Assembly (NCBI GenBank): GCA_000165345.1
Contig: CM000429.1
Coordinates: 608,001 to 672,000, forward strand
DNA: 64,000 bases
Direction: 5' to 3'
The translations under genes and the position numbers were made by a program. Positions 2,444 through 64,000 of the stretch are shown here, one piece after another. The notes below the pieces were generated by a model. That model had not been told where the DNA came from. It did no database searches and was given only the letters and a program-made list of their open reading frames with translations. How positions within the stretch are numbered: position 1 is the stretch's first letter; each line of letters opens with the position of its first letter.

Positions 2444-2572
2444 TTATCATAATTATTATGTATGCTTATCTTACTAATGCATCAGTCTATTAATTAATTT
2501 GCTATATATACTAGACTATGAAATCTTTGTTAAAAAATTTGAGACATAGTTGCCTAAGTTTTTATTTATGTG

Positions 2573-3272
2573 TTAATCAAGCTTCAAGTTTAATGATAAC
2601 TTACCTCCAGGAATAGATCCTGTAATTTCTTCCATAGCTTCTGCATCTAGACTTTCTTGTAACATGGGAAGAATAAATGTAATTCCCAGAGAAACTGCAG
2701 AAATCAAGACTAGAGGGTTTTTCAATAGGGACAATAAGTTTTGAAGTCCACCGTAGTTATCACTTTCTGTTTTTGTCGAGTATAAGGGCTTTATATTCAA
2801 AACATAACTATTTACTATTGCACCTGGTTTTCCTGTTTTAAAATCAAAAACACTCTTTTTACAAACAAGTCTTGTTCCATCCTTAGATTCCTGTTCGGTT
2901 ATTTGTAGAATGTAGGAATCGTATACATATTCTGGTCCCAGAATTCTTAATAGGTATTCTCCTTTTGGTAAATTGTTGCTAAACAATAATTATACATTTT
3001 ATATAAATATGCACAACTTACATTTGAAAATGCCCAGACGAATTGGGATAAATTGGATGTTCTCTCCCGGTCAAATAAATCTGAGTTCTCATTAAAGAAG
3101 ATTCAGGAGCATCTACTTTTCCAAAAATATCCATCTTTTCATCGCAATACACAGTAGAAGTGTAAGAAAGGAATATAAAGCTGATTGAAAAAACAGTGAT
3201 AAGGAAATAATTAAGCTCAGTAGAAACTTACAAAAAGTACAAAAGAATAATTCTTGTCAAATTATTATTCAT
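2573..3272 (-). CDS. EMC7: ER membrane protein complex subunit 7 (EMC7-like), 3 exons: 3272..3232, 3180..3022, 2978..2573.
   Basis: Exon 1 is 41 nt (ATG AAT AAT AAT TTG...) and, spliced to exon 2, encodes a signal peptide MNNNLTRIILLYFFFIFLSYTSTVYC. Introns are 3181..3231 and 2979..3021, both with a GTAAGT donor and YAG acceptor, and the phases are consistent. The mature part GEYLLRILGPEYVYDSYILQI...VLNIKP aligns with the EMC7 beta-sandwich (human [21 protein letters not shown]). One C-terminal transmembrane segment follows. The ORF track shows only the last exon. Confidence 0.6.
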
Positions 3273-3464
3273 TTCAAGAGTGCATAAATTGTGTTTATTA
3301 GTAATTCTTCAAATTTCAATTATTAATTAAAAAAAAAAAAATTTCCCTCCATTTAATTTCCTCACGCTAAAAGAAAAATTTGAGCACATCTTTTATTATT
3401 AGTTCAATATTTAAATCAACTCACAAATATATTTAGTATCATAATATAGTTTTTATATAGATTT

Positions 3465-26150: not shown

Positions 26151-27923
26151 ATGAGTGATAGAAACATTGAACAATTATTAGAAGTAATTAATGGTAATAG
26201 TACTCACCAAAGTAATTTGGAGAAACTAATAACTAATTCTATACCAGAATTAGAGTCAAATTTTGAGATTCTTGAATTAGAAAAAAAGCTAATTATCACT
26301 AAGTTTTCATTGGGCCTAATGGAATTTAAGTCAGATTCAAAAACTTTTCATCAAGCAAGAATGTCTTTATTGGCCTTAATTTTGGAAAAGCAAGAAATTA
26401 AGGAAATACTTGAATTTAACTTTAATGGCTTTAATCCTTCAGTCCATATTTTGCACTCTGTGGAAATAGCTTCTTTGGAAATTAGATTATTTTTGGAATC
26501 TAAGCTTGTAGAGTTGGAAGACTTTAAATTTAGCCTTGATGAATCAAAGGATAAAAAACAAGTACAAGACGATGAGGAAATTGATCTTTTAACAAGTAGC
26601 TTTCGAATATTAGATTCTCTTCTTACTCAGCTAAACAAAGATGAAAATTTGGATTTTTTGGAATTTTCTGAGAAGATTACAGGAGTTCAGGTAGTTGAGT
26701 TATTAGATTCATTAAAGGGCACTGCAAAACATTGTATTGAATTTATATTGGATATTGAAGGAATCATTCGAGATGAATATGAAATGGATCTTAATAAGGG
26801 AGTATTAGAACTTAAAGGTAATACTAACTCTAAAACATCAAGTTTGTATTGGATTATTTATTATTCTTGCTCAATATCATCTAAATGGCAAATTAACGAG
26901 CCTGATCAAGACCTTGATAAGTATATTAAATTGCTAGAAATTGCATCCAGGTATTTGAATCCTCTCCATTTTGCATCTGTATTCCCCACACTCATCCATA
27001 TTTCTGTAATAGACTGGGCAAATATTCCTGGTATATTAGAAACTGTATTAACATCAATGCTTTCATTCTCTACTTTAATTAAACAAGAAAATAAGAAAGA
27101 AGGGATTTATAGTGGATTATATTATGCAGCACTCCTAATCACATCTGCCTGGTGGTCTCCAGGAATAGATACATATAGAATAGCAGCTTCAAAAATGAAA
27201 GATGGTTCAAGATCTCTTGAATATATTTCAAGAAATTATTTAAATCTGGATCACTTAGATAAGATACAGGATAGTAAAGTCTCTTTATCAAAACTTAGAG
27301 TAGAAGAAGAGAAGAAATCTGGGACAAAAATGCCAGAATTCGTACCTTTAGATACAAATGCAATTCCCGAATACTCATTTGAGGATAATCCTGGAGTGGA
27401 TAGAGTTAGAAGGATCTCGCTCATTATTTTTGGACTAATTAAAGAGATTTATCAAGAAGATATTAATCAATTTCAAGGAGACCAGATTAATAAAGTCTTG
27501 TTTATTAGACATTTAGATGACCCAAATTCACAAAATTTCGAGAAATTCTCAGCTTTTATTCAGACCCTTATTTGCATTTTAACATTATTAACTTGTAGAA
27601 TCCAAAACTCTTATGTACCATCAGAACTTTGGAATATTATATTTAAACTAATAATTGTATTGACTCCAAAATCTAGTAAAGGGTATTATTACGATTCCCC
27701 TAGAAAAATCACATTTTTTATTTCATTACTTAGAACTACAGCTATAGCATTTTCGAGTGGATATTCTGATCAAGCCAAGCAATTTGATAAATTACTCGAG
27801 GATCTAAAAATTGAAACAACATATAATATTCCAAAGCTAATAATAAGAGACGATTGTGAGGAATTCTCTGAGCAAGATGAAGAATCAATCAAATTCTTCC
27901 GTAATTTATTAGATATTAGTTAG
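26151..27923 (+). CDS. Hypothetical protein (590 aa), probably alpha-helical, with no family assigned.
   Basis: It is a long uninterrupted ORF with coding-like composition and helical-repeat-like periodicity. No diagnostic motif was recognised. Confidence 0.45.
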   Translation: MSDRNIEQLLEVINGNSTHQSNLEKLITNSIPELESNFEILELEKKLIITKFSLGLMEFKSDSKTFHQARMSLLALILEKQEIKEILEFNFNGFNPSVHILHSVEIASLEIRLFLESKLVELEDFKFSLDESKDKKQVQDDEEIDLLTSSFRILDSLLTQLNKDENLDFLEFSEKITGVQVVELLDSLKGTAKHCIEFILDIEGIIRDEYEMDLNKGVLELKGNTNSKTSSLYWIIYYSCSISSKWQINEPDQDLDKYIKLLEIASRYLNPLHFASVFPTLIHISVIDWANIPGILETVLTSMLSFSTLIKQENKKEGIYSGLYYAALLITSAWWSPGIDTYRIAASKMKDGSRSLEYISRNYLNLDHLDKIQDSKVSLSKLRVEEEKKSGTKMPEFVPLDTNAIPEYSFEDNPGVDRVRRISLIIFGLIKEIYQEDINQFQGDQINKVLFIRHLDDPNSQNFEKFSAFIQTLICILTLLTCRIQNSYVPSELWNIIFKLIIVLTPKSSKGYYYDSPRKITFFISLLRTTAIAFSSGYSDQAKQFDKLLEDLKIETTYNIPKLIIRDDCEEFSEQDEESIKFFRNLLDIS

Positions 27924-28009
27924 AAAAGTTCTATAGTAGGCAATATTTGTTATAAACAAAATGATATAATTAATTATAATCTGTCACAACTGCTTTATTG
28001 AATATAAAT

Positions 28010-28429
28010 CTATTTATTACCATGAATATTTGGAGGTAAAGGAGGGACTCCTGGAGGTGGAATGGGTAGGCCTCCAATTGAAGGATTAATTAGTGGGAAT
28101 TGCCCAGGAGGTATCATAGGAGGAGGAATTAAAGGCGGACCTCTAGCTATAGTCTGAATATTTCCTGCAAAAGTAGGTTCAACAGGCTTAGTTGATTGAT
28201 TCTTTGGGGGTGCCTCTGCAACGAAAGTCACAATATTTTCCCCTCTAAGCATTATTAATCCGAGAGATCTCTTTAGCTCTTTTGACTCTTCTCCTTTCTT
28301 TACACGTCTATATTCTTGGCAATCAGATAAGACCAAATTCATATGTCTATCAAATGCCATAAGATTCCCAACCATAACTCTGTCATCTTGAACAGTTACT
28401 CTTATTCTATAATTTATATATTTTTGCAT
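28010..28429 (-). CDS. SNRPB: Small nuclear ribonucleoprotein-associated protein B (SmB).
   Basis: The Sm fold MQKYINYRIRVTVQDDRVMVGNLMAFDRHMNLVLSDCQEYRRV...RSLGLIMLRGENIVTF matches SmB ([39 protein letters not shown]...LGLVLLRGENLVS). The tail is Pro/Gly-rich (PPGQFPLINPSIGGLPIPPPGVPPLPP). Confidence 0.8.
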   Translation of the reverse strand: MQKYINYRIRVTVQDDRVMVGNLMAFDRHMNLVLSDCQEYRRVKKGEESKELKRSLGLIMLRGENIVTFVAEAPPKNQSTKPVEPTFAGNIQTIARGPPLIPPPMIPPGQFPLINPSIGGLPIPPPGVPPLPPNIHGNK

Positions 28430-28486
28430 ATTTTCACCTTTTCTTTACAAGTTAGAAATTTTATTATTTTATTTGATCATAAGCCG

Positions 28487-28499
28487 TTTCCCGCCAAAA
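28487..28499. promoter_or_regulatory. E2F-like site TTTCCCGCCAAAA, 58 bp upstream of the SmB start codon.
   Basis: Seen directly. It matches the canonical TTTSSCGC E2F consensus. Confidence 0.5.
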
Positions 28500-28772
28500 G
28501 TACCGAATTATTTAAGCTTTAAATATTGGAAAACTATTATTCAAATAAGGACGAGCTTTTACTGAGATCAAATGATATTTAAAAAAAAGTTTGATTTCCT
28601 AATTAGATTTCCTAAGTAGTTTTGCTGAAGTAATTGGTAGATTGTTCCTTATTTTATTCTTTTGTTTTTTTTTCTTATTAGTTAAAGATTAAAGATAATA
28701 ATATTTTGATGAGATAAATGTTATATATAATTAAAATATTCCTGAAAAATAAGGTAAAAGGCTATAAACTGT

Positions 28773-29435
28773 TCACTTACGATAAACATAGTGAATAAAT
28801 AAATAAATAGTAATAAAAATCAGTGATGTAAGGAGAATGCATCCATAAACTAGAATCTGGTCAACTAGGTTTCGTCTCTCGATATTTGAAAGCAAGGAAT
28901 GGCTGATTCCTAATCGACTGGCCATATCTAGGGCTTTTTTCCTTACAGATTTAAGCATTCTATTTTGGTTTTTTAGATTAAAAACAATACTTCTTGCTTG
29001 CTCTAGTGCATGATCAATAGCAATATGGCTCTCTTGCCAAATAGCTTTTTCACGTATTAGGGCTCCGACCCCACTATTCTTTTCTGGAGAAGAATATGAT
29101 AATTTCTTCTGCTCTTCAATCTGACTTTTGTGAATATGGTCTAACTGCTTTGAAATAGATTCTCTTAAAGAATTGGAATCAGATACTAAATTATCAATTC
29201 TTCGATCCCAAATCTTTTCTTGAGAGCGGTCAATAGATTTGGAGGATTTTAGTTTATCAAGAACTTGTTTTAATTCTGTTACTTGCCTGCAAAAATCATT
29301 AAGGATAGCTGATAACCTTTGTTGTAAAGCAATTGAACGATCCAACCCCAACTCAAACTGCTCTAGCAGCCTTTCTGCCTCATTTTTAGACTTTGTTGCC
29401 TTTGGATACAAAGCAGAGAGTGTTTCTAAACTCAT
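28773..29435 (-). CDS. GOSR1: Golgi Qb-SNARE GOSR1/Gos1 (GS28-like), 220 aa.
   Basis: The C-terminal SNARE motif and anchor (LKNQNRMLKSVRKKALDMASRLGISHSLLSNIERRNLVDQILVYGCILLTSLIFITIYLF) parallel human GOSR1 ([58 protein letters not shown]). Confidence 0.65.
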   Translation of the reverse strand: MSLETLSALYPKATKSKNEAERLLEQFELGLDRSIALQQRLSAILNDFCRQVTELKQVLDKLKSSKSIDRSQEKIWDRRIDNLVSDSNSLRESISKQLDHIHKSQIEEQKKLSYSSPEKNSGVGALIREKAIWQESHIAIDHALEQARSIVFNLKNQNRMLKSVRKKALDMASRLGISHSLLSNIERRNLVDQILVYGCILLTSLIFITIYLFIHYVYRK

Positions 29436-29618
29436 TTAATTTTAAACTCTCTGATTTGTTTCTTATTCTTCGGATATATTTACTTTATTTTATAAAAACT
29501 TGGCGCCACTCTGTCATATTTTATTTAGTCTTTAATTATTACATGGATAATAATATTTTCACTTGGAAAATACAAGCAGAAAAAAAAATGTAATAAAGAA
29601 ATGCTTGATTTTATTAGT

Positions 29619-31679
29619 TTAAAAAGCTTCTTCCTTTTCAAATACATACTCATCAGAGTCTATTTCATCTTTTTCTGCTTGAACCTTTATATTTGACCCT
29701 TGTTCCATTCTATTTATAAACCACTTACAAAAAATGGAATTTAGTCGTTCTCTGAGTTTTTCTTCATCATTTCCCTCTAAAAAAGGATTAGAAAGATATA
29801 TTTTTAATTGTGTGATTTACCACACAAAACCTACCTAGTAAATCTGACAAATTTGTTGAATTCTCAGGATCGCATCTAGAAAGTATTTCAAATAGGCCAT
29901 TTTTAAATACTATGGAATCCGATCTCATCACCATAGATGCTAAGTTCTTGGAAATGATTGGGGAATATTTTTCTACCGAGCTTTTATAGTTAAATTCTTT
30001 GATATTAACAAGTTCCATTGGAAACTTAACTTGACAACCTTTCATTAAACTTTTTAACGATTGTTGAATAATTGTAGAAAGCCCAACATTGCTTTTCAGA
30101 CTACTCTTTCCCAAAGTACCATACTGAATTCCATGGCCTTTAACATTAATAAATAGAACTCTAATACTAAATTCAACCGTTGGAATTACCATTATTGGAA
30201 GTAAGAATTCACTCTAAAATTATTATAATTTAGATATTGTATTTTAATATATCGCTATTAAAATAGCTAACTTACCCCAGAAAATACTGAAAGTTTCTCA
30301 TGATTATTTTCTAATATTTCATCTTTTTTTGCCAATTTCATTCCAAAGATATTTCCTTTCTTTCTGATGAAGCTTTTAACTGATGTTACAATATCACAAT
30401 ATTCTGTATCTTTACAAATAATTGGCATTCCATTCGAAAAACGGTAAACGTAAAGATAGCCTGTCTTTAGAGAAGTTGTTTGAGATGTATTGGATATATT
30501 TAAGTTTGATTGGTTTTCTTTATCAACATTTTGATATTCAATATCATCTACTTGGTTTTCTTTTTTCACATGAAATTCTCTTAAAAAACCGAAAACTGAA
30601 TCAATCTTATATTTAGATCCTTTATTACTTGAATACCGAATAAAATTATCTTCAAAAATATCGAAAAATGATAAATTGATATTTCCTTTTATCAAATCAG
30701 AAGCATCCATTTTCATATTTGTTTCAAAGTTTAAGAAAATATGGCTATTCCAAAATTTAGAAAGTACCAAATAACTTTGAATCTTCTTAAGGCATGATTT
30801 TGCATAAAGTTCCATAGAAAAGTACTTCTCTTGTAAGTATTCTAGTCCTAAGCTCATTTTCATAGACACTGAGAATTCAGTTATCCAATCCCAATTGGTA
30901 TAATCAAAACTCTCACTATTCCCTACATAAAAAGATCCATCATTCAGGTTACAAAGCAGAGTAAACTCCCAAATCTTGTTTCCCATTCTCATCTTAACTT
31001 TAACGTTTCCTTCTCCATGTTGTGTAGCATAAAGTAATATCATTTTAAGGCCTACCCCAAATTGTCCTGTATAATAAGAATCTCTTTTATTTATTTTCTT
31101 ACTAAAAGATGAATCAGAATTAAAAATTTAATCAATCACTTTAAATACAATTAATATTTAAACTCACTTTGTTCCAAAAAGAGTTCCCAATAGGTCAATG
31201 GATTCTAAAGGTATTCCGCATCCTGTATCTCTTACAATGATGTTTATTCTTGCCTTAAAGTTCAAACCAATTTTAATAAAAAATCAAATTTATTAATACT
31301 AGTCCTGTATTTTACTTACCTGATCATCCAATTCTAAATTCTCAAAATTCACAGAGATTTCTATTTTTTTTGGAAAATCATGCCACTCTGCTTTTGCCTT
31401 ATTATTACATGCATCTATAGAGTTATCAAAAAGTTCCTAAATAAAAAAAATCAATCCAAATTAAACTAAAAGCTACATTGCAAATTAAATCTTATTTAAC
31501 TTACCTTGAAAGCCATAAAAGGAGCATTTTCTGAGTCAAATCCAGTAATCCCAATGTCTATAGAATCATAGAAAAGTTAGTTATTACTTGTAAATCCACT
31601 CAAAGAAATATATATTTCACAAAAGAATCACAAAAAACTTACTTTCTGAAAAGAAATTAATTGCTGAAATATTGGACAT
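29619..31679 (-). CDS. DNA topoisomerase VI subunit B-like GHKL ATPase, 7 exons: 31679..31643, 31557..31505, 31436..31320, 31253..31168, 31101..30276, 30213..29835, 29776..29619.
   Basis: The spliced N-terminus MSNISAINFFSENIGITGFDSENAPFMAFKELFDNSIDAC...ARINIIVRDTGCGIPLESIDLLGTLFGTNKKINKRDSYYTGQFGVGLKMILLYATQ aligns motif for motif with archaeal Top6B ([36 protein letters not shown]...KVNVVDNGIGIP...FGRVLYSSKY...TRGMYGLGVKAAVLYSQ). All six introns are 58-85 nt with GTAAGT/GTGAGT/GTAGGT donors, and the phases are consistent. The last exon adds an acidic tail. The ORF track shows only two internal fragments (258 and 134 aa). Confidence 0.65.
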
Positions 31680-31783
31680 TTTAGAAAAATATCTTTTTAG
31701 ATTGATGCAAATTATTTCTCTGATTCCACTTTTAATTAATATTTTTTCACACATTGGCTGTCAATTATGACTGTGGGGGCCCG

Positions 31784-31791
31784 TTGGCGCC
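31784..31791. promoter_or_regulatory. TTGGCGCC site in a GC-rich patch (ctgtgggggcccgttggcgccgaatgg) between the Top6B-like start (minus strand, 31679) and the TOM7-like mini-gene start (plus strand, 31915). It may serve as a bidirectional promoter element.
   Basis: Seen directly. Confidence 0.45.
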
Positions 31792-31914
31792 GAATGGAGT
31801 TATAATTATTTCCTAAATTCCTAATACTTTGAAAAATAAAATAAAATAAAACAGAGAAAACTTCTGAATAATAATTAATATTGCATTTCTATTATACTTT
31901 GAAATATTGAAATA

Positions 31915-32221
31915 ATGAGATACTCACAAGTATACTCCAAACTTTTATATGATAAGATTCTCAAATTGAATCAAATATATTTGAACATAATTAAAAGTGG
32001 CATTTCTAAGGTAAGAAATAAACTACTAACTCCTTATTACTCATGAAAAATTTATTTTCTATTAAATTACGCAGATATACCATAAATTTATCCTATTTTG
32101 GTACAGATATGCAAAGAAAGTGTTTCATTATGGTCTGATACCAGGTACTTATTTATATACTTTGTGGAAAGAGGATGAATTCACACTAAATCCTATCAAG
32201 TTAGCACGGGTTCTTATCTAA
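31915..32221 (+). CDS. Candidate 2-exon mini-gene (31915..32010, 32075..32221) encoding an 80-aa single-transmembrane peptide with a TOM7-like motif.
   Basis: Exon 1 (32 codons from the ATG) ends exactly at a GTAAGA donor. The 64-nt intron contains a TACTAAC branch consensus (32025..32031) and ends in CGCAG. Exon 2 is open for 48 codons but has no in-frame ATG of its own. The product ...KFILFWYRYAKKVFHYGLIPGTYLYTLWKEDEFTLNPIKLARVLI resembles TOM7 (yeast HNVAHYGWIPFVLYLGWAHTSNRPNFLNLLSP; plant HYGFIPLVIFVG). It is not in the ORF track because each exon is under 60 aa. Confidence 0.35.
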
Positions 32222-32309
32222 AACACCTAGAGGTCGTTTTTATTTCCTCTTCCATTTATTAATTATAGTTGTTATAATTCAATAATTTTTTTTTTTCTTC
32301 TATTTTTTA

Positions 32310-33521
32310 TTAGTCCCCTTTCATACTATAAGGCTTATTGAATTTTCCTGGAACATAGTTTTCCCATCTATATGCTGGAAAAACATGTTTGTTCTTTTCG
32401 TACCACTGTCTTTTAACTACTTTTCCTGCGTGAGACTAAACAATTGTGAAGAATAGTATTAAAATCATATTATGAAAATTAGGTAAAAGTATGATTTAAC
32501 TTACTTCAGTAGTCTCTTTACTGACATCACTTTTTTCACGAATATCATCAAATACATTAAAGTGGAACAAGGGACCTTAAATTTGTCAAAAACATAGGCC
32601 AGTTAAAGTTTCCTAATATTTGCTATAAAACCCAAGCTTACCTGATTTCCCTCTAGCCTTAGTCTTAATAAGCTCATGAAAGGTAATTGTATGTGGTAAA
32701 ATTACGTCTTCTTTTATATACATTAGAGATGCACTTTAATGAACAAGTTTGAAGGGATAAGTTATAAAATTTGAAAATTTGTGAAAATTGACAGGAATTA
32801 GCTATGGATTCTTATTATCAGTTCTAACTTACCTAGAAAGCCTTGAAAATTCTTTGAATTCTGATTTTAGCTTTATTCTACATTTCTCAAGAAATTCGCC
32901 AATTGTAGTATTCCTTGGAACATGAACAGATCTTCTGTGGCCACTTCCATCCCAATATGAAAATACAACTTCAATTATCTCTTGTTTCAGTTTCTCTTCT
33001 TTTTCAAATTCCTCTTGTTTCAGTTTTTCTCTTGCTTTCGCTTCTTCAAGCTCTCTTTTTTTATCGGGAAGAAAGGATGTATCTATAGATGTATCTTTTC
33101 CTATTGTACTAAAGTCAAACTCTGAGTGTTTTTCTAAAGATTCTGTGGATTTGTTTTCTCCTGATAAAGAATCTTTTATAGCTGTTAAAGTAATTTCTTT
33201 GGATATAGTCTCTGATCGGTCCTCTTTATCAGGAATTTGGTCTGGTATATCGTCTCCTTGATTAAATTCGAATGATAAGGTATTGTATTTCATCTTTTTA
33301 GGTTTGGATTCCGGAATGATCTTTGTTTTCTTTGAAACATTTTCAGGCTTAATCCCCCTTCGAATATCACTTATATGCCTTTTATAAGTTTCCATAGAAA
33401 CAAGTCCCATAGTTCTTGACCTAAACTGCTCCTCATCCTCAGTAGACTTACTGTAAAACATCTCCTCTATACTTTTCATCGTTTGCTTCAACACTGCATC
33501 CAAGACTAATAAAAGCAGCAA
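32310..33521 (-). CDS. XAP5/FAM50-family nuclear protein, 4 exons: 33521..32833, 32733..32642, 32575..32505, 32435..32310.
   Basis: The spliced C-terminal half [27 protein letters not shown]...[47 protein letters not shown]...[29 protein letters not shown] is near-identical in pattern to human FAM50A ([15 protein letters not shown]...[41 protein letters not shown]...[29 protein letters not shown]). Introns are 99, 66 and 69 nt, with GTAAGT/GTAAGC donors. The start codon choice (33521 or an internal Met) is uncertain. Confidence 0.7.
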
Positions 33522-33759
33522 GTTACAAAACTATTAAAATAAATATTTAAAAAAACTATTAAGATTTCACATGAATTCCTATTTGTGAAAATTTCAATAA
33601 AAGTAGATGGACTATTAAAATACAAGTAAAAATAGAGCTTTGCCGCTTAATATAAAAAATGACGTGGAGGCAAACCTTCAAGGGATAAACTTAGAGAGTG
33701 AAGAAAAGAATAAGAGCAATAAAGAAAATAAGACCAAAAATATACGACAATACTTTCAT

Positions 33760-36015
33760 TTATGAATCAAGGGTCTTCTTAAATTGATTAAACCATTCGG
33801 ATAATTCTTGTTTAATGGATAAATTTTTGTAATCTCCTTGATCATTCTCAGAAATCGTAAGAGATTGTAGATCTCTGGAGATATTCTCTTCATCTACTAA
33901 TGTGAGAGGTCTCTCAAGACGAGCTAACATATTTTCCAAATAATCCGAACTGACTCCTCTGATACGTAGCCATGGATGATCAAGCAAAGTTTGAGCTCCA
34001 GGCCTCATCCTGGGGTCTAAGGCCAAAAATGAATATAAGAATAAGGAAAAATTGTGGGCCTCAAATTTGTTGATACAGTATTTATGAATAAGAACTGACT
34101 TCAGATCCCAATATTGAAGCTTGGAGATTTTGTGTAATTTATTATGTTTATTAAAAAATCTTTTTGAATGTTTTCCTGATTTGATCAAAGACTTAGGAAA
34201 TTCTCCAAGAAGCTCAATCATCTGAGCAAGATGATCATCGTCACCACTAAAATCTTCTGTTGCCTTGGGAGTGAAGAGAAGATCACCGGTTAGAAGTTCA
34301 AAGATTGTGCATCCTAAGCTCCAAATGTCAGCAGACCAATCGTAACCCGCGCCTACAATAACTTCAGGACTCCTATATTGCCTGGTCTGAATATCTTGAC
34401 TAAAATGCTTATTCATCCAGCAAGCATTCCCAAGATCTACAATGAAGTACTCTGCTTCATTTCTAGAAAACGTGTTAGGATTTACACTAATTTGTTTAAT
34501 AACATTGGAAACCTCCATAATTTTTTCCTCATTAACCTCAAAACGAAGAGCTTTCGAATCTGCCTTCGAGTTCTTTGAAAACTTATGATTTTCTTGTGAT
34601 AATAGTTCTGAACCTCCAACATAACTTTTGTTCCATTGAGTGAGAGGAAGTAAATGAGTATATCTTTGCTCGTCATTTGCAATATACTGCTGAGGATGGT
34701 AAACTTCATACAAGTGATGATGATAAGGTGGTTTTATTAAAGGAAACTGGTTTAAGTTATTCATGTTAGAATTGAAGCTAAAATTCTCCAATTTGCTCTG
34801 CTCAGTAGAGCTTTTTTCCAACTTCTTTGAATTAAAATTGATTTGATAATAACTTGAATGAGTTGGGTCTGAAGGCATTGGTTTCAGATGAAGCTTTAAA
34901 AATGGAGGAGTAGATAATCTTTTTCCTTTTTCAGAAGCTTCAGTATTTTTGGCCTCACCTGGTATACATTCAATAACGTCTTCCTCAGCGTTACTTGACT
35001 CGGTAGCCTGAGAACCTAACTTTTGCTTGTTTTTTCTCTGATTTTTCCTCTTTAACCTTCTTCTTTCTTTAGCGTTTAAACCATGATACTGGGTTGAATT
35101 TCCATTGCTGGAGTCATTGATATTACTATTATGAATAGAGTCAGTGGTTGTTGAATTTGTTATTTCAGTTGCTGTAGTAACGTCTTTAATATTATTATCA
35201 GAATTAGAACCATCCCGAATGTGGTGGTCGTCTGATTCTTTGATGTTTGAGGAATCAGCATCGTACTTTTCCTCAGTGTTGATAACTCTAAAATCAACCA
35301 TGGGAATAGAAGAGCTTGAAACAACTATGTTTTCTGGTTTAATATCAGTGTGTATTACACCACAAATACGATGCAAATAGTCCAATCCAATTAACGAATG
35401 GGCAGCAATCTTCCTGACTATATCAATTGGAACTCCTTTATAGTCATACAAGCTGATTAATTGCAAGATATTCGGCCCCAATACTTCAAATACCATACAA
35501 ACATGTTGGCCATTTGGACCTGAAACCTCAAAGTAATCAATAAAACCTACAACACCATTAAAGTTCCTTGAAAATGGACGAGTAAAATTCTCAATACAAC
35601 TTTCCAAATGTCTATTCAAAGATTCCCTCCACTCCTCTCCACTAGCATGGTTCTTAGTAGCCGTTAATATCTCCATTTCGTCATATGCAGCCTGTCGGTA
35701 CTCTTGGGCTCCTTTTTGGAACTTTAAAGCAAAATAAGTAGTAGGTGTGCTTAAAGTGTCAATAGCCAACCATACTGTTGAAAAATGGCCCCATCCTAAC
35801 TTCGAAACAATCAAATATCTACCATTATAAACCTCCCCAATCGATACTGGGTGGTAACCTCCAACTTTGTAATCCTCTTGTGATTCATTCCAACAATCTG
35901 CTGGAATGGTTGGCTCATCATAATCATGCTCAATATGCTGATTTTCTCCGCTCACTTTAAGATGTTGAGCTCCAAGATTTTGATTTGGATTACTCATTTT
36001 CCCCAAATTTTCCAT
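33760..36015 (-). CDS. SR-protein-specific kinase (SRPK-like), 751 aa, with a split kinase domain.
   Basis: GHFSTVWLAIDTLS...ALKF (kinase lobe 1), a long Ser/Asn-rich spacer, then HTDIKPENIV...DLGNACW...SPEVIVGAGYDWSADIWSLGCTIFELLTGDLLF. A bipartite kinase with a spacer insert is the SRPK hallmark. Confidence 0.75.
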   Translation of the reverse strand: MENLGKMSNPNQNLGAQHLKVSGENQHIEHDYDEPTIPADCWNESQEDYKVGGYHPVSIGEVYNGRYLIVSKLGWGHFSTVWLAIDTLSTPTTYFALKFQKGAQEYRQAAYDEMEILTATKNHASGEEWRESLNRHLESCIENFTRPFSRNFNGVVGFIDYFEVSGPNGQHVCMVFEVLGPNILQLISLYDYKGVPIDIVRKIAAHSLIGLDYLHRICGVIHTDIKPENIVVSSSSIPMVDFRVINTEEKYDADSSNIKESDDHHIRDGSNSDNNIKDVTTATEITNSTTTDSIHNSNINDSSNGNSTQYHGLNAKERRRLKRKNQRKNKQKLGSQATESSNAEEDVIECIPGEAKNTEASEKGKRLSTPPFLKLHLKPMPSDPTHSSYYQINFNSKKLEKSSTEQSKLENFSFNSNMNNLNQFPLIKPPYHHHLYEVYHPQQYIANDEQRYTHLLPLTQWNKSYVGGSELLSQENHKFSKNSKADSKALRFEVNEEKIMEVSNVIKQISVNPNTFSRNEAEYFIVDLGNACWMNKHFSQDIQTRQYRSPEVIVGAGYDWSADIWSLGCTIFELLTGDLLFTPKATEDFSGDDDHLAQMIELLGEFPKSLIKSGKHSKRFFNKHNKLHKISKLQYWDLKSVLIHKYCINKFEAHNFSLFLYSFLALDPRMRPGAQTLLDHPWLRIRGVSSDYLENMLARLERPLTLVDEENISRDLQSLTISENDQGDYKNLSIKQELSEWFNQFKKTLDS

Positions 36016-38824: not shown

Positions 38825-39658
38825 ACATCTTTAGTACTGATTAAGCCTCTAAGTGTTTCATTAATATTAATGTTTTTCAAATCTTGATTCTTAGAAACTC
38901 CAGCCATCTGAGTTGAATTATTTAAAATTAAAAAGTAATTCGAATTTATTTTTTACACTTACTTTGGCAATCTCTGAAATCTCGTGAACTTTGGGTAAGT
39001 TATCAATAAAATCTACTTGGCCTTGAATAAGTCTAAGAAAATCCTCAATCTAATAATAAAGTTAGATGAGATCCAGAGAAGAATTGGTCATTTATGAGCA
39101 CTTACTAAATCATTCTTATCAATGTTAACAAATAAACAGGCCACATCTTTGGTAGTATCTGTAATTCCAAATGTCTTTAATGTTGCTGAAATCTGAAATG
39201 AAGTGTAAAAGTGTAAATTATAAAATTTAGAATAAACTTTTCTAACTTACATTTGTTGAAGGAGACATATTATAAATAACTTCTGTCTCAAAAGCTTTAG
39301 TTTTTGTTTTACTCTGAAACTTTTTTTTTAATAGACAAATTGAAAGGGAAATTAAAATGTGTTCCAAATTATATATCTGAAAATAGATGTTCAAAAAAAA
39401 AAAAAAAAAGATTTTACTAGTCAATTTGGGAAAAGATACATCTGGAAATGAACCTACCATTCTTGCGTTCATTAATATAACAAATTGTCTAGATTGATCT
39501 TGAGTCAATTCTAGTAATTTTGGATGATTCTTTTTCATAAGAATTTCCAAGAGCTCTTTAGAGTTGTGGATATCTCGTACTAGACAAATAGAAACAAATT
39601 CATCTTTAAGAGACTCGCCAAGAGTAAATCTTTGAAGTTTTTCTTGAATAGAGGCCAT
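38821..39658 (-). CDS. CGI121: KEOPS/EKC complex subunit Cgi121 (TPRKB-like), 5 exons: 39658..39458, 39376..39251, 39192..39106, 39049..38963, 38907..38821.
   Basis: The spliced protein ...IYNMSPSTNISATLKTFGITDTTKDVACLFVNIDKNDLIEDFLRLIQGQVDFIDNLPKVHEISEIAKMAGVSKNQDL...RGLISTKDV matches human TPRKB ([34 protein letters not shown]...[34 protein letters not shown]...ICRMSTKDVL). Four introns are 55-81 nt with GTAGGT/GTAAGT donors. Intron 1 contains an A17/T17 homopolymer (39393..39409). The stop codon (38821..38823) overlaps the stop of the convergent 14-3-3 gene (38822..38824). Confidence 0.7.
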
Positions 39659-47188: not shown

Positions 47189-48397
47189 ATGAGCTCAGAA
47201 ACTGCTTCAATTGAAATTGGAAAGTCTGCCATTGTAAGTTAACTTAATTCCAAATTAACATGGTAAATTATTTGAAATTGAAATTTAATTAAACTTTAAA
47301 TATACCATAATAGATTAACTCTGAAGCTATTGGGCATAAAATCAACTCTCTTGAAGATAAGTATTACAGTATAAAAAGGTACCATGAATCTCGTTTAAAA
47401 GTAAGTGCTAATTTATTTTTTCCAAGATATTATAAAATATACATAATAATTAGGACTTAAGCTCAGAAATCAAGGAGCTTTCAAAGCTTATAAACAAGGA
47501 ACAAAATGATATTCAAGAAATAAAATCTATAAAAGAAAAAAAGTTGAGAGAAGTCGAGTTGAAAATATCAAACCAAATTTTGGAATTACGGGAAATTAGA
47601 AATGAATCTGATACTTTAATTGAAAACAAAATTAAGGACCATTTACACAGGATGGAAACTTTAGAATTCAACAAATCATCAGAAATAGATATTCGAAGAG
47701 AAGATCAATTCGAGAAGATTTCAAGTTCATTAAATGACTTAACTCAAAAAGTTGAATATTTAAGGAAGAGAAGGTAAGTTAATTTTCCCAACTGGTTTGT
47801 TAGCATTCAAATCAGAATTACTTATGATATACTTTATTCTTGAACTTAAAATTTGTCCTTCCCAAACTCTTCTTCATCTAGAAAGAATATTCTTACATCA
47901 TTTAAAAAAGAACTTGCAAATGGTAAGTTTACAACTAATAATATGAAGATGGTATTTCGTTGGTATAATGTTTATTTGTAATATATGGATGTAGCAATTC
48001 TAAATCCATTTTCATGTAAATACTATCTATTTCTTGATTAATTATTTGGACAAATTTACTCTAATTATTTTCCTCCTTTAACAATAACAATAGAATCGGA
48101 GAATATATTAAAATCCATTCAAGAAGAATCTAACAGAAGGGAATACTCTGTCCAAAGCATGAAACAGTAAGTTTTAGAGTTTACTAAGATTTTAATGTAA
48201 TAATCAAAATATTGTCTTTATTTGAAAGACTATTAGACGACACAATGAATCACTTTCTGACGGAAATGGCAGCCTCAAGGACTAGTAGATTGGAAATGGA
48301 TAAGCAAATTATTGACCAATTAGAGCTTGCTTGTCAAGATACTGAAAATAAGTTAGCTAGGATGATAAGCTCAAATGAAAATCAAAAAGACAACTAA
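47189..48397 (+). CDS. Coiled-coil protein, 6 exons: 47189..47233, 47314..47400, 47454..47773, 47882..47922, 48094..48166, 48229..48397. About 262 aa, family unassigned.
   Basis: Exons were linked by GTAAGT donors and YAG acceptors (introns 80, 53, 108, 171 and 62 nt), with all phases consistent and no in-frame stops. The product is a heptad-rich helical protein (MSSETASIEIGKSAI|INSEAIGHKINSLEDKYYSIKRYHESRLK|DLSSEIKELSKLINKEQ...YLRKRR|KNILTSFKKELAN|ESENILKSIQEESNRREYSVQSMKQ|LLDDTMNHF...). The ORF track shows only two fragments (77 and 61 aa). Confidence 0.5.
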
Positions 48398-52954: not shown

Positions 52955-53182
52955 ATTTAATTAATGTTTTTTCAAAATACTCGTCACCAAGATTAACCGC
53001 CAAAAGTTGGCGCTCAGTTTTTTGCTGACATTAAGAGATACAAATAAATTCGAATAAAAAAAGATTTATAAGAACTCCGAGAAAGAAAAGAAAGGAGTAT
53101 TTTGAATTATTTTTCATTAGATGAGTGCAAAATACTGACCTGTGACTTTGAGTTTTGGAATTTGGAGTGAAACTCTTAAGAG

Positions 53183-64000
<10,818 letters not shown>

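Follow-up and report, generated by a model that had tools for sequence, protein, structure and literature searches.

A seven-exon model for a fragmented TopoVIB-like gene of Cryptosporidium parvum

Gene structure at the locus

The stretch of DNA analysed here, referred to below as the window, comprises 64,000 nucleotides (nt) of chromosome 1 of Cryptosporidium parvum (assembly GCA_000165345.1, contig CM000429.1, positions 608,001 to 672,000). The gene in question, which is predicted to encode a protein related to subunit B of topoisomerase VI (topo VI-B), lies on the minus strand at 29619..31679, in AT-rich sequence with a GC content of ~27-31%. Two open reading frames (ORFs), both on the minus strand, are the only sizeable ones listed within this span, at 30267..31043 (258 amino acids, aa) and 29788..30192 (134 aa), and on the plus strand the same list holds no ORF longer than 66 aa. 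An earlier examination of the sequence alone (the original prediction) had proposed that these two ORFs are the visible parts of a single gene of seven exons, separated by six introns of 58-85 nt, and the ORF list agrees with it as to the two fragments.

Joining the seven minus-strand exons yields a coding sequence of 1656 nt, which specifies 551 aa followed by a TAA codon and contains no internal stop (Table 1). The introns all begin with GT and end with AG, have a GC content of 16-26%, and carry the 5' splice site GTAAGT in four cases, GTGAGT in one and GTAGGT in one. If any single intron is kept, an in-frame stop is met after 1-15 codons. The 258-aa ORF, annotated as a gene of its own, is located inside exon 5, which encodes the end of the GHKL domain, a linker of ~80 residues that replaces the H2TH domain, and the transducer's first strand, where the anchoring Asn is located. 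The 134-aa ORF, also annotated as its own gene, is located in exon 6, which encodes the first helices of the C-terminal bundle in addition to the transducer core. Six introns had been regarded as a high number for an intron-poor genome, which is a fair remark, since about 90% of C. parvum genes are intronless and the intron-containing ones have 2-10 exons, with a mean of 2.6 (PMC4637869).

An alternative start at ATG 31754, used in a 400-aa GenBank model, was considered and rejected. In both Cryptosporidium sp. chipmunk genotype I and C. andersoni, stop codons break the 25-codon extension that it would add; 31679 is therefore the conserved start, and the extension is probably 5' untranslated region (UTR). 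A search of positions 27000-34000 against Rfam and tRNA scans returned nothing, so that neither the locus nor its surroundings conceal an RNA gene.

Table 1. Features of the TopoVIB-like gene and its upstream region (positions in the window; the codon and phase of each intron are given as codon/phase)
Feature	Positions	Strand	Description	Basis
Whole gene	29619..31679	-	ATG to TAA, 7 exons and 6 introns	splice model; gap-free alignment to 551-aa orthologues
Exon 1	31643..31679	-	37 nt; codons 1-12 plus 1 nt; ATG at 31679-31677; beginning of the strap, MSNISAINFFSE	splice model
Intron 1	31558..31642	-	85 nt; GTAAGT..TAG; 13/1	position and phase the same in chipmunk genotype I and C. andersoni
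Exon 2	31505..31557	-	53 nt; NIGITGFDSENAPFMAFK, remainder of the N-terminal strap	splice model
Intron 2	31437..31504	-	68 nt; 31/0	splice model; species comparison
Exon 3	31320..31436	-	117 nt; N-box ELFDNSIDA at 31436-31410	splice model, phmmer, hhalign
Intron 3	31254..31319	-	66 nt; 70/0	splice model; species comparison
Exon 4	31168..31253	-	86 nt; G1 box DTGCGIP at 31229-31209	splice model
Intron 4	31102..31167	-	66 nt; GTGAGT..TAG; 98/2	splice model; species comparison
Exon 5	30276..31101	-	826 nt; G2 box GQFGVGLK at 31067-31044; W170 at 30887-30885; N321 at 30434-30432	splice model, hhalign
Intron 5	30214..30275	-	62 nt; 374/0; read through in the 400-aa GenBank models (..SGVS*)	absent in C. 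andersoni
Exon 6	29835..30213	-	379 nt; transducer core; switch K409 at 30108-30106 (QYGTLGKSSL)	splice model, hhalign
Intron 6	29777..29834	-	58 nt; GTAGGT..TAG; 500/1	splice model; species comparison
Exon 7	29619..29776	-	158 nt including TAA at 29621-29619; last bundle helix and acidic low-confidence tail	splice model, AlphaFold2
Upstream in-frame extension	31680..31754	-	25 codons from ATG 31754, start of the 400-aa GenBank model; probably 5' UTR	frame, species comparison
GGCGCC (E2F-like) box	31783..31794	-	TTCGGCGCCAAC, ~105 nt upstream of the TopoVIB-like ATG	read from sequence

Conservation of the spliced frame in the genus

The exon model was tested by comparison with other Cryptosporidium species, and the exon structures of chipmunk genotype I and C. 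andersoni were solved by requiring an exact match to the deposited proteins. Among 5.8 billion proteins searched, eight relatives came up, all from Cryptosporidium, six of them full length (536-577 aa). The chipmunk genotype I orthologue, also of 551 aa, is 89% identical in a gap-free alignment over the whole length, POM82191.1 of C. meleagridis (551 aa, the full product) likewise aligns gap-free at 95% identity, and cubi_00287 of C. ubiquitum is 86% identical to the C. parvum 551-aa protein. All six introns are found at the same positions and in the same phases in chipmunk genotype I. Five of the six are also present in C. andersoni, the deepest branch of the genus, in which the intron at codon 374 is absent and the frame reads through. 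C. andersoni carries instead an intron of 116 nt at the equivalent of codon 468, an instance of intron turnover in the genus.

No insertion or deletion separates the exons of C. parvum from those of chipmunk genotype I, and the differences at codon positions 1, 2 and 3 number 41/30/154. Among the 196 differing codons, 133 are synonymous and 63 nonsynonymous. The third-position excess is seen separately in each of the seven exons, including the two shortest, with all four differences of exon 1 at position 3 and a distribution of 0/0/6 in exon 2. Intron sequences share 74% identity, and in four of the six the length differs by indels not divisible by three. Purifying selection on the TopoVIB-like gene is shown at this level of comparison.

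The gene order is conserved as well. In chipmunk genotype I, the order is DnaJ, kinase, XAP5, TopoVIB-like gene, BOS1 SNARE, LSM, a 590-aa protein and Utp21, and that of C. andersoni is identical, the 590-aa gene being represented there by one of 579 aa. With the open 551-aa frame and the cross-species conservation, the proposed seven exons and six introns are well supported, and we regard the single-gene model, read from the DNA, as established short of cDNA. The alternative of two separate small genes was rejected because the spliced frame is conserved.

Deposited models of the gene

An exact-sequence look-up identified the 258-aa ORF as XP_001388177.1/EAZ51354.1 and the 134-aa ORF as XP_628111.1/EAK88347.1, both deposited under the name 'hypothetical protein [Cryptosporidium parvum Iowa II]'. 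Exact C. parvum matches were likewise obtained for two of the neighbours, the kinase and the BOS1 SNARE. The neighbours are cgd1_2910 (SmB), cgd1_2920 (BOS1), cgd1_2950 (XAP5), cgd1_2960 (kinase) and cgd1_2970 (DnaJ), and according to this order the two fragments are cgd1_2930 and cgd1_2940, which were still separate genes in the 2015 re-annotation. Neither of the two turned up in a literature search for expression evidence, which took in part of the data of a sexual-stage transcriptome study (Tandel et al. 2019, PMC6877471) and is not to be read as evidence of absence. The exact 551-aa product has no match in a collection of ~15 billion proteins.

The models deposited for the gene differ widely. 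The long-read annotation of C. parvum (QOY43331.1/WRK30689.1) has 400 aa; it begins at the non-conserved upstream ATG, has introns 1-4 spliced and reads through intron 5 to end at ..SGVS*. C. hominis is represented by the same two fragments of 134 aa and 258 aa as C. parvum, and by OLQ18685.1, a protein of 795 aa in which the gene is fused with the neighbouring XAP5; the 832-aa model of C. felis is a similar XAP5 fusion. One C. meleagridis model, KAK9174487.1, also ends at ..SGVS* with intron 5 read through, and the other, POM82191.1, is free of such problems. The names given to orthologues in UniProt and GenBank are 'Histidine kinase/HSP90-like ATPase'. For C. parvum and C. hominis, every deposited annotation is therefore fragmentary, truncated or fused, and the description of the gene as hidden in ORF fragments was accurate for both species. 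Deposited in this form, the gene is invisible to orthology tables, expression analyses and lists of knockout targets. The family and its presence in the genus have already been published; what is new is the correct full-length model for C. parvum and, by extension, for C. hominis.

The adjacent XAP5 gene (cgd1_2950; 32829-33521, minus strand) is also spliced, with an ORF of 230 aa as against deposited models of 216, 272 or 311 aa. The XAP5 fusions of C. hominis and C. felis are in silico products, apparently made by skipping the first two exons of the TopoVIB-like gene.

Relationship to topoisomerase VI subunit B

The original prediction had described the protein as Top6B-like, alignable from its first residues with topo VI-B, and had proposed a check against MORC and Hsp90. 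In Pfam, the 551-aa protein matches the generic HATPase_c family above the cutoff (1.5e-10, residues 25-142) as well as HATPase_c_3, and no other family. The best NCBIfam model is that of topo VI-B, PRK04184 (8.9e-19, residues 2-164), at 67 bits against a cutoff of 274. A phmmer search of the PDB returned topo VI-B chains only, with residues 3-158 aligned to residues 8-155 of S. shibatae topo VI-B, so that the alignment does run from the beginning of the protein.

A profile search of 1.84 billion representative proteins yielded 189 relatives. The nearest named ones beyond Cryptosporidium are from Vitrella brassicaformis (4.7e-51), Hepatocystis (2.3e-43) and Chromera velia, and the match to the Hepatocystis protein, named 'DNA topoisomerase VI, b subunit, putative', spans positions 4-533 of the 551 in the profile. 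Canonical topo VI-B proteins come lower in the list (E ~1e-8 to 1e-6 for the three checked), aligned over the GHKL domain alone. Among the closest relatives outside Cryptosporidium (2.2e-30) is also XP_053992779.1, a 633-aa protein on a 2.76-Mb contig of the assembly of the bee 'Hylaeus volcanicus', which is probably an apicomplexan (gregarine-type) contamination of that assembly, or else a horizontal transfer.

When a profile of 19 sequences of the clade was compared by hhalign with one of 10 canonical topo VI-B proteins, the two aligned over 401 columns with a probability of 99.9% and an E-value of 4e-36, from 3-468 in the query to 6-480 in the template, including the transducer and the switch Lys. 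With a shallow profile of five Cryptosporidium sequences, the GHKL domain alone was aligned to canonical topo VI-B, and the C-terminal halves taken alone gave a weak match (E 0.006, probability 6%). Against PDB sequences, the clade profile matched topo VI-B at 3e-36 (128 bits), and the next family was TRAP1/Hsp90 at 1e-7 (34 bits); MORC was not among the 60 matches listed.

The predicted fold gave the same placement. The top 16 Foldseek matches in the PDB are all topo VI-B. The fold scores are 21.4 for S. shibatae topo VI-B (353 residues aligned) and 19.5 for that of M. mazei (364 residues), compared with 17.9 for ParE, 16.0 for MutL, about 12 for Hsp90, 10.6 for MORC3 and 6.4 for yeast Rec102. 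The GHL ATPases other than topo VI-B (GyrB/ParE/topo II, MutL/MLH1/PMS1, Hsp90/TRAP1 and MORC) thus differ by lower fold scores, shorter alignments, profile E-values weaker by ~29 orders of magnitude and the lack of a match to a topo VI-B-type N-terminal strap. Profile search, hhalign, Foldseek and NCBIfam all place the protein with topo VI-B rather than with MORC or Hsp90.

The closest known system is the apicomplexan 'pTOP6B' group, which was reclassified as TopoVIB-like by Allen and Maxwell in 2024 (PMC11302465), with C. ubiquitum as the representative of Cryptosporidium; the set includes PfTopoVIB of Plasmodium falciparum and orthologues from Babesia, Toxoplasma and Porospora, and in that study the Apicomplexa are without topo VI. 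The C. parvum protein is related over its full length to the TopoVIB of the Plasmodium lineage and to the other Cryptosporidium pTOP6B proteins, and synteny is conserved within Cryptosporidium. Judged by these alignments, it is an orthologue of the apicomplexan 'putative TOP6B' and a TopoVIB-like protein, not a canonical topo VI-B, the clade being assigned to this class by its architecture and by PMC11302465.

Conserved ATP site and altered transducer

The three motifs that had been read from the translation are all present in the spliced protein, ELFDNSIDA at residues 31-39, DTGCGIP at 78-84 and GQFGVGLK at 110-117. In the N-box, E31 is aligned with the Glu that acts as general base in the archaeal protein, and N35 with the Asn that binds Mg. 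In an alignment of 20 clade members, K30, E31, L32, N35, D38, A39, N321, P324, C333, G351 and K409 are invariant, and D78, G80 and G82 of the G1 box and G110, G113 and G115 of the G2 box are nearly so, which indicates that the apparatus for ATP binding and hydrolysis is under strong constraint. The N-terminal strap (SxxEFFxxNxxxxGF) is present too: SAINFFSENIGITGF aligns from residue 3 to residue 8 onward of 1z59_A, and the strap also aligns to the canonical topo VI-B profile in hhalign. The same hhalign comparison pairs the anchoring Asn (N321, YRFSNGMPI with YRFANRIPL) and the switch Lys (K409, YGTLGKSS with YKTxGKE).

Several canonical elements are missing. Opposite the invariant G164 of the G3 position in canonical topo VI-B, hhalign places W170 (WDWITEF). 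The canonical H2TH aligns to gaps or to the low-confidence query region 232-305, and in AlphaFold2 (AF2) models, which were made for the 89%-identical chipmunk genotype I orthologue, its position is occupied by short beta-strands and a disordered loop (275-306). Pfam H2TH has no match in the C. parvum protein, and one canonical topo VI-B gives a weak one. The residues opposite WKxY are G-N/A-I/A-F (347-350), in a local alignment of modest confidence. The Pfam transducer family PF09239 (Topo-VIb_trans) finds no match at E up to 1, whereas canonical proteins reach 155-196 bits; it is likewise unmatched in the Cryptosporidium, Vitrella and Hepatocystis proteins.

In place of a single long transducer helix, the model has helices at 416-436, 444-470, 474-487, 489-501 and 504-524. 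The longest helix past the switch Lys has 27 residues (~40 angstroms), and a Pro-containing loop at 437-443 makes the break. The predicted local distance difference test (pLDDT) values of this region lie mostly at 70-96, highest in helix 416-436 and 70-87 in the later helices. Overall, the AF2 runs gave a pLDDT of 63.5 and a predicted template modelling score (pTM) of 0.58 with a 5-sequence alignment, and 76.7 and 0.77, respectively, with a 20-sequence alignment.

The protein thus shares with canonical topo VI-B (S. shibatae 2zbk_B, M. mazei 2q2e_B, plant TOP6B) the strap, the Bergerat fold, the catalytic Glu, the Mg-binding Asn, the G1 and G2 boxes, the GHKL-plus-transducer architecture, the anchoring Asn (RFxNxxP) and the switch Lys. 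It differs in having no H2TH, no conserved WKxY and a Trp instead of the G3 Gly, and in a transducer that is too divergent for PF09239 and in which a helix-loop-helix and bundle replace the single helix, 68-88 angstroms in length in the canonical proteins (PMC11302465). The label 'Top6B-like' consequently stands as far as the relationship to topo VI-B is concerned, and is to be refined to TopoVIB-like, not canonical. The pTOP6B clade has the same N, G1 and G2 boxes, no G3 glycine, no H2TH and a helical bundle in place of the long transducer helix; the differences from it are those of species and annotation state only, and functionally nothing was found to set the C. parvum protein apart. Like the TopoVIB-like proteins mouse TOPOVIBL, Arabidopsis MTOPVIB and yeast Rec102/Rec104, it has lost H2TH and has a transducer-like domain with short terminal helices, here a small bundle. 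The degeneration of the GHKL domain that includes loss of the N-box and weak G1 and G2 boxes is not seen, as all three boxes are intact.

A probable partner of Spo11

We think it likely that the locus is a single seven-exon TopoVIB-like gene whose product would serve as a Spo11 partner in the formation of meiotic DNA double-strand breaks, a role of B-type partner in which it would resemble the meiotic TopoVIB-like proteins. Taking topo VI and the Spo11 core complex as a guide, its C-terminal helices would bind a dimer of Spo11, which is topo VI-A-like. Because the ATP residues, all but the G3 glycine, are invariant in the clade and the switch Lys is intact, the GHKL domains probably dimerise under the control of ATP and in this way gate the cutting of DNA by Spo11. 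The setting would most likely be the zygote after fertilisation, where meiotic double-strand breaks would be made, and not housekeeping strand passage; with H2TH and WKxY lost, strand passage is less likely to be efficient. WKxY has a DNA-binding role similar to that of H2TH. The latter couples DNA binding to ATP turnover (PMC11302465).

Cryptosporidium has two SPO11 paralogues, and the C. parvum Spo11 cgd8_1350 is upregulated in female gametes, together with DMC1, HOP2 and HORMA. For the Plasmodium orthologue, an interaction with Spo11 has been shown (PMC10269783). The 551-aa model therefore supplies a named candidate partner for the two Spo11 paralogues of C. parvum. Few apicomplexans other than this species allow both fertilisation and meiosis to be tracked and genes to be edited. 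The gene also bears on a current dispute over the apicomplexan complex, which is seen either as a true topoisomerase VI or as a maker of meiotic breaks: Cryptosporidium retains it with an intact ATP site but lacks mitochondrial DNA, the proposed substrate of the Plasmodium enzyme.

Several points weigh against this interpretation. The curated long-read annotation of C. parvum ends its model at intron 5, and the stop there might reflect real intron retention in the sampled stages. The structural features were read from models of the chipmunk genotype I orthologue. Most TopoVIB-like proteins have no N-box and limited G1/G2 similarity (PMC11302465), whereas the ATP site of the C. parvum protein, except for G3, is intact and clade-invariant; in the SAR supergroup (stramenopiles, alveolates and Rhizaria), which includes the Apicomplexa, the TopoVIB-like subunits have GHKL-like folds near the canonical one (PMC11302465). 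An intact ATPase site fits a real topoisomerase equally well, and according to PMC10269783 the Plasmodium orthologue supports decatenation and, in schizonts, acts on the mitochondrial genome.

These last two points lead to the strongest of the alternatives, in which the protein and a Spo11 paralogue would together form a genuine type IIB topoisomerase (topo VI), the protein being its B subunit, and would carry out ATP-dependent strand passage during the repeated rounds of DNA replication in asexual merogony. The clade shows no variation in the residues for ATP binding and hydrolysis, the N-terminal strap, the anchoring Asn or the switch Lys, homology to topo VI-B extends over the full-length profile, and the best fold matches are topo VI-B; for Plasmodium, complementation, decatenation by extracts, radicicol sensitivity and schizont-stage expression have been described (PMC10269783; summarised in PMC11302465). 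Set against this are the missing H2TH, WKxY and long transducer helix, and the enrichment of the C. parvum partner Spo11 in female gametes. To our knowledge, Cryptosporidium has no mitochondrial or plastid genome, so that the mitochondrial-DNA version of this explanation proposed for Plasmodium is inapplicable there. As the gene is nonetheless retained under selection, the conserved role of the family can be argued to be nuclear. Two phylogenomic studies moreover found no TopoVIA/SPO11-3, BIN4 or RHL1 in Apicomplexa (PMC9665070, PMC11302465), and TopoVIB was also scored as absent in the first of them, that of Brinkmeier et al. (PMC9665070). We therefore hold a genuine topo VI to be unlikely.

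Much less probable still is a functional product of 400 aa (or about 375 aa), truncated by read-through of intron 5, that would consist of the GHKL domain and the linker and lack the transducer core, with exons 6-7 as a separate small gene or as non-coding sequence. Its support comes from QOY43331.1/WRK30689.1 and KAK9174487.1, with their common end at ..SGVS*, and from the original annotation, in which the 134-aa ORF is listed separately. However, conservation of the spliced frame extends through exons 6 and 7, with differences from chipmunk genotype I of 8/6/35 and 5/2/15, respectively, at codon positions 1, 2 and 3 and without an indel, and these exons hold the family-invariant K409 as well as helices with aligned counterparts in the topo VI-B transducer. 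Five other species and the second C. meleagridis annotation have the protein at full length (536-577 aa), C. andersoni reads in frame through the site from which intron 5 is absent, and the first residue of the 134-aa ORF is an internal Met that falls halfway along a beta-strand in the AF2 model.

The idea that the protein is a different GHKL ATPase (MORC, Hsp90/TRAP1 or a MutL paralogue) that resembles topo VI-B through the shared Bergerat fold only, to which the generic Pfam matches and the orthologue names would lend themselves, was rejected on the profile, strap and fold evidence and retains hardly any probability, given the alignment of the topo VI-B-specific strap from residue 3, the gap between the E-values for topo VI-B and for the best Hsp90-family chain, the lack of MORC among the 60 listed matches, and the 401 hhalign columns that take in the transducer and switch Lys.

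A more specific possibility, which we put forward tentatively and rate below even chances, is that the apicomplexan Spo11 partner is an evolutionary intermediate that has lost the DNA-sensing H2TH and WKxY and kept a fully competent ATPase, with meiotic breaks gated by ATP-driven dimerisation of the B subunit. Since Cryptosporidium is without organellar DNA, the retained and selected gene would then show that the role of mitochondrial-DNA decatenase proposed in Plasmodium is not the conserved function of the family.

Upstream elements and other features of the window

The GGCGCC (E2F-like) box upstream of the TopoVIB-like gene (Table 1) has TTTGGCGCCATA at the equivalent position in chipmunk genotype I. 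A second such box, TTGGCGCCAC, is located at 29500-29509 on the plus strand, ~65 nt upstream of the BOS1 SNARE ATG, so that both intergenic regions flanking the gene carry one. GGCGCC boxes are, we assume, linked to the E2F-type promoter motifs of Cryptosporidium, and the box upstream of the TopoVIB-like gene might, by inference only, be a candidate promoter element.

Elsewhere in the window, a crude scan for GTAAGT...AG found clusters of three to five candidate short introns at 38908-39250 (minus strand), 47401-48236 (plus strand) and 2554-3424 (minus strand), suggesting other multi-intron genes. A stop-free frame of at least 3607 codons runs along the plus strand from 53180 to 64000, where it is still open at the end of the window; this region is the most AT-rich of the window (GC content 24-31%) and presumably forms part of one giant C. 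parvum gene.

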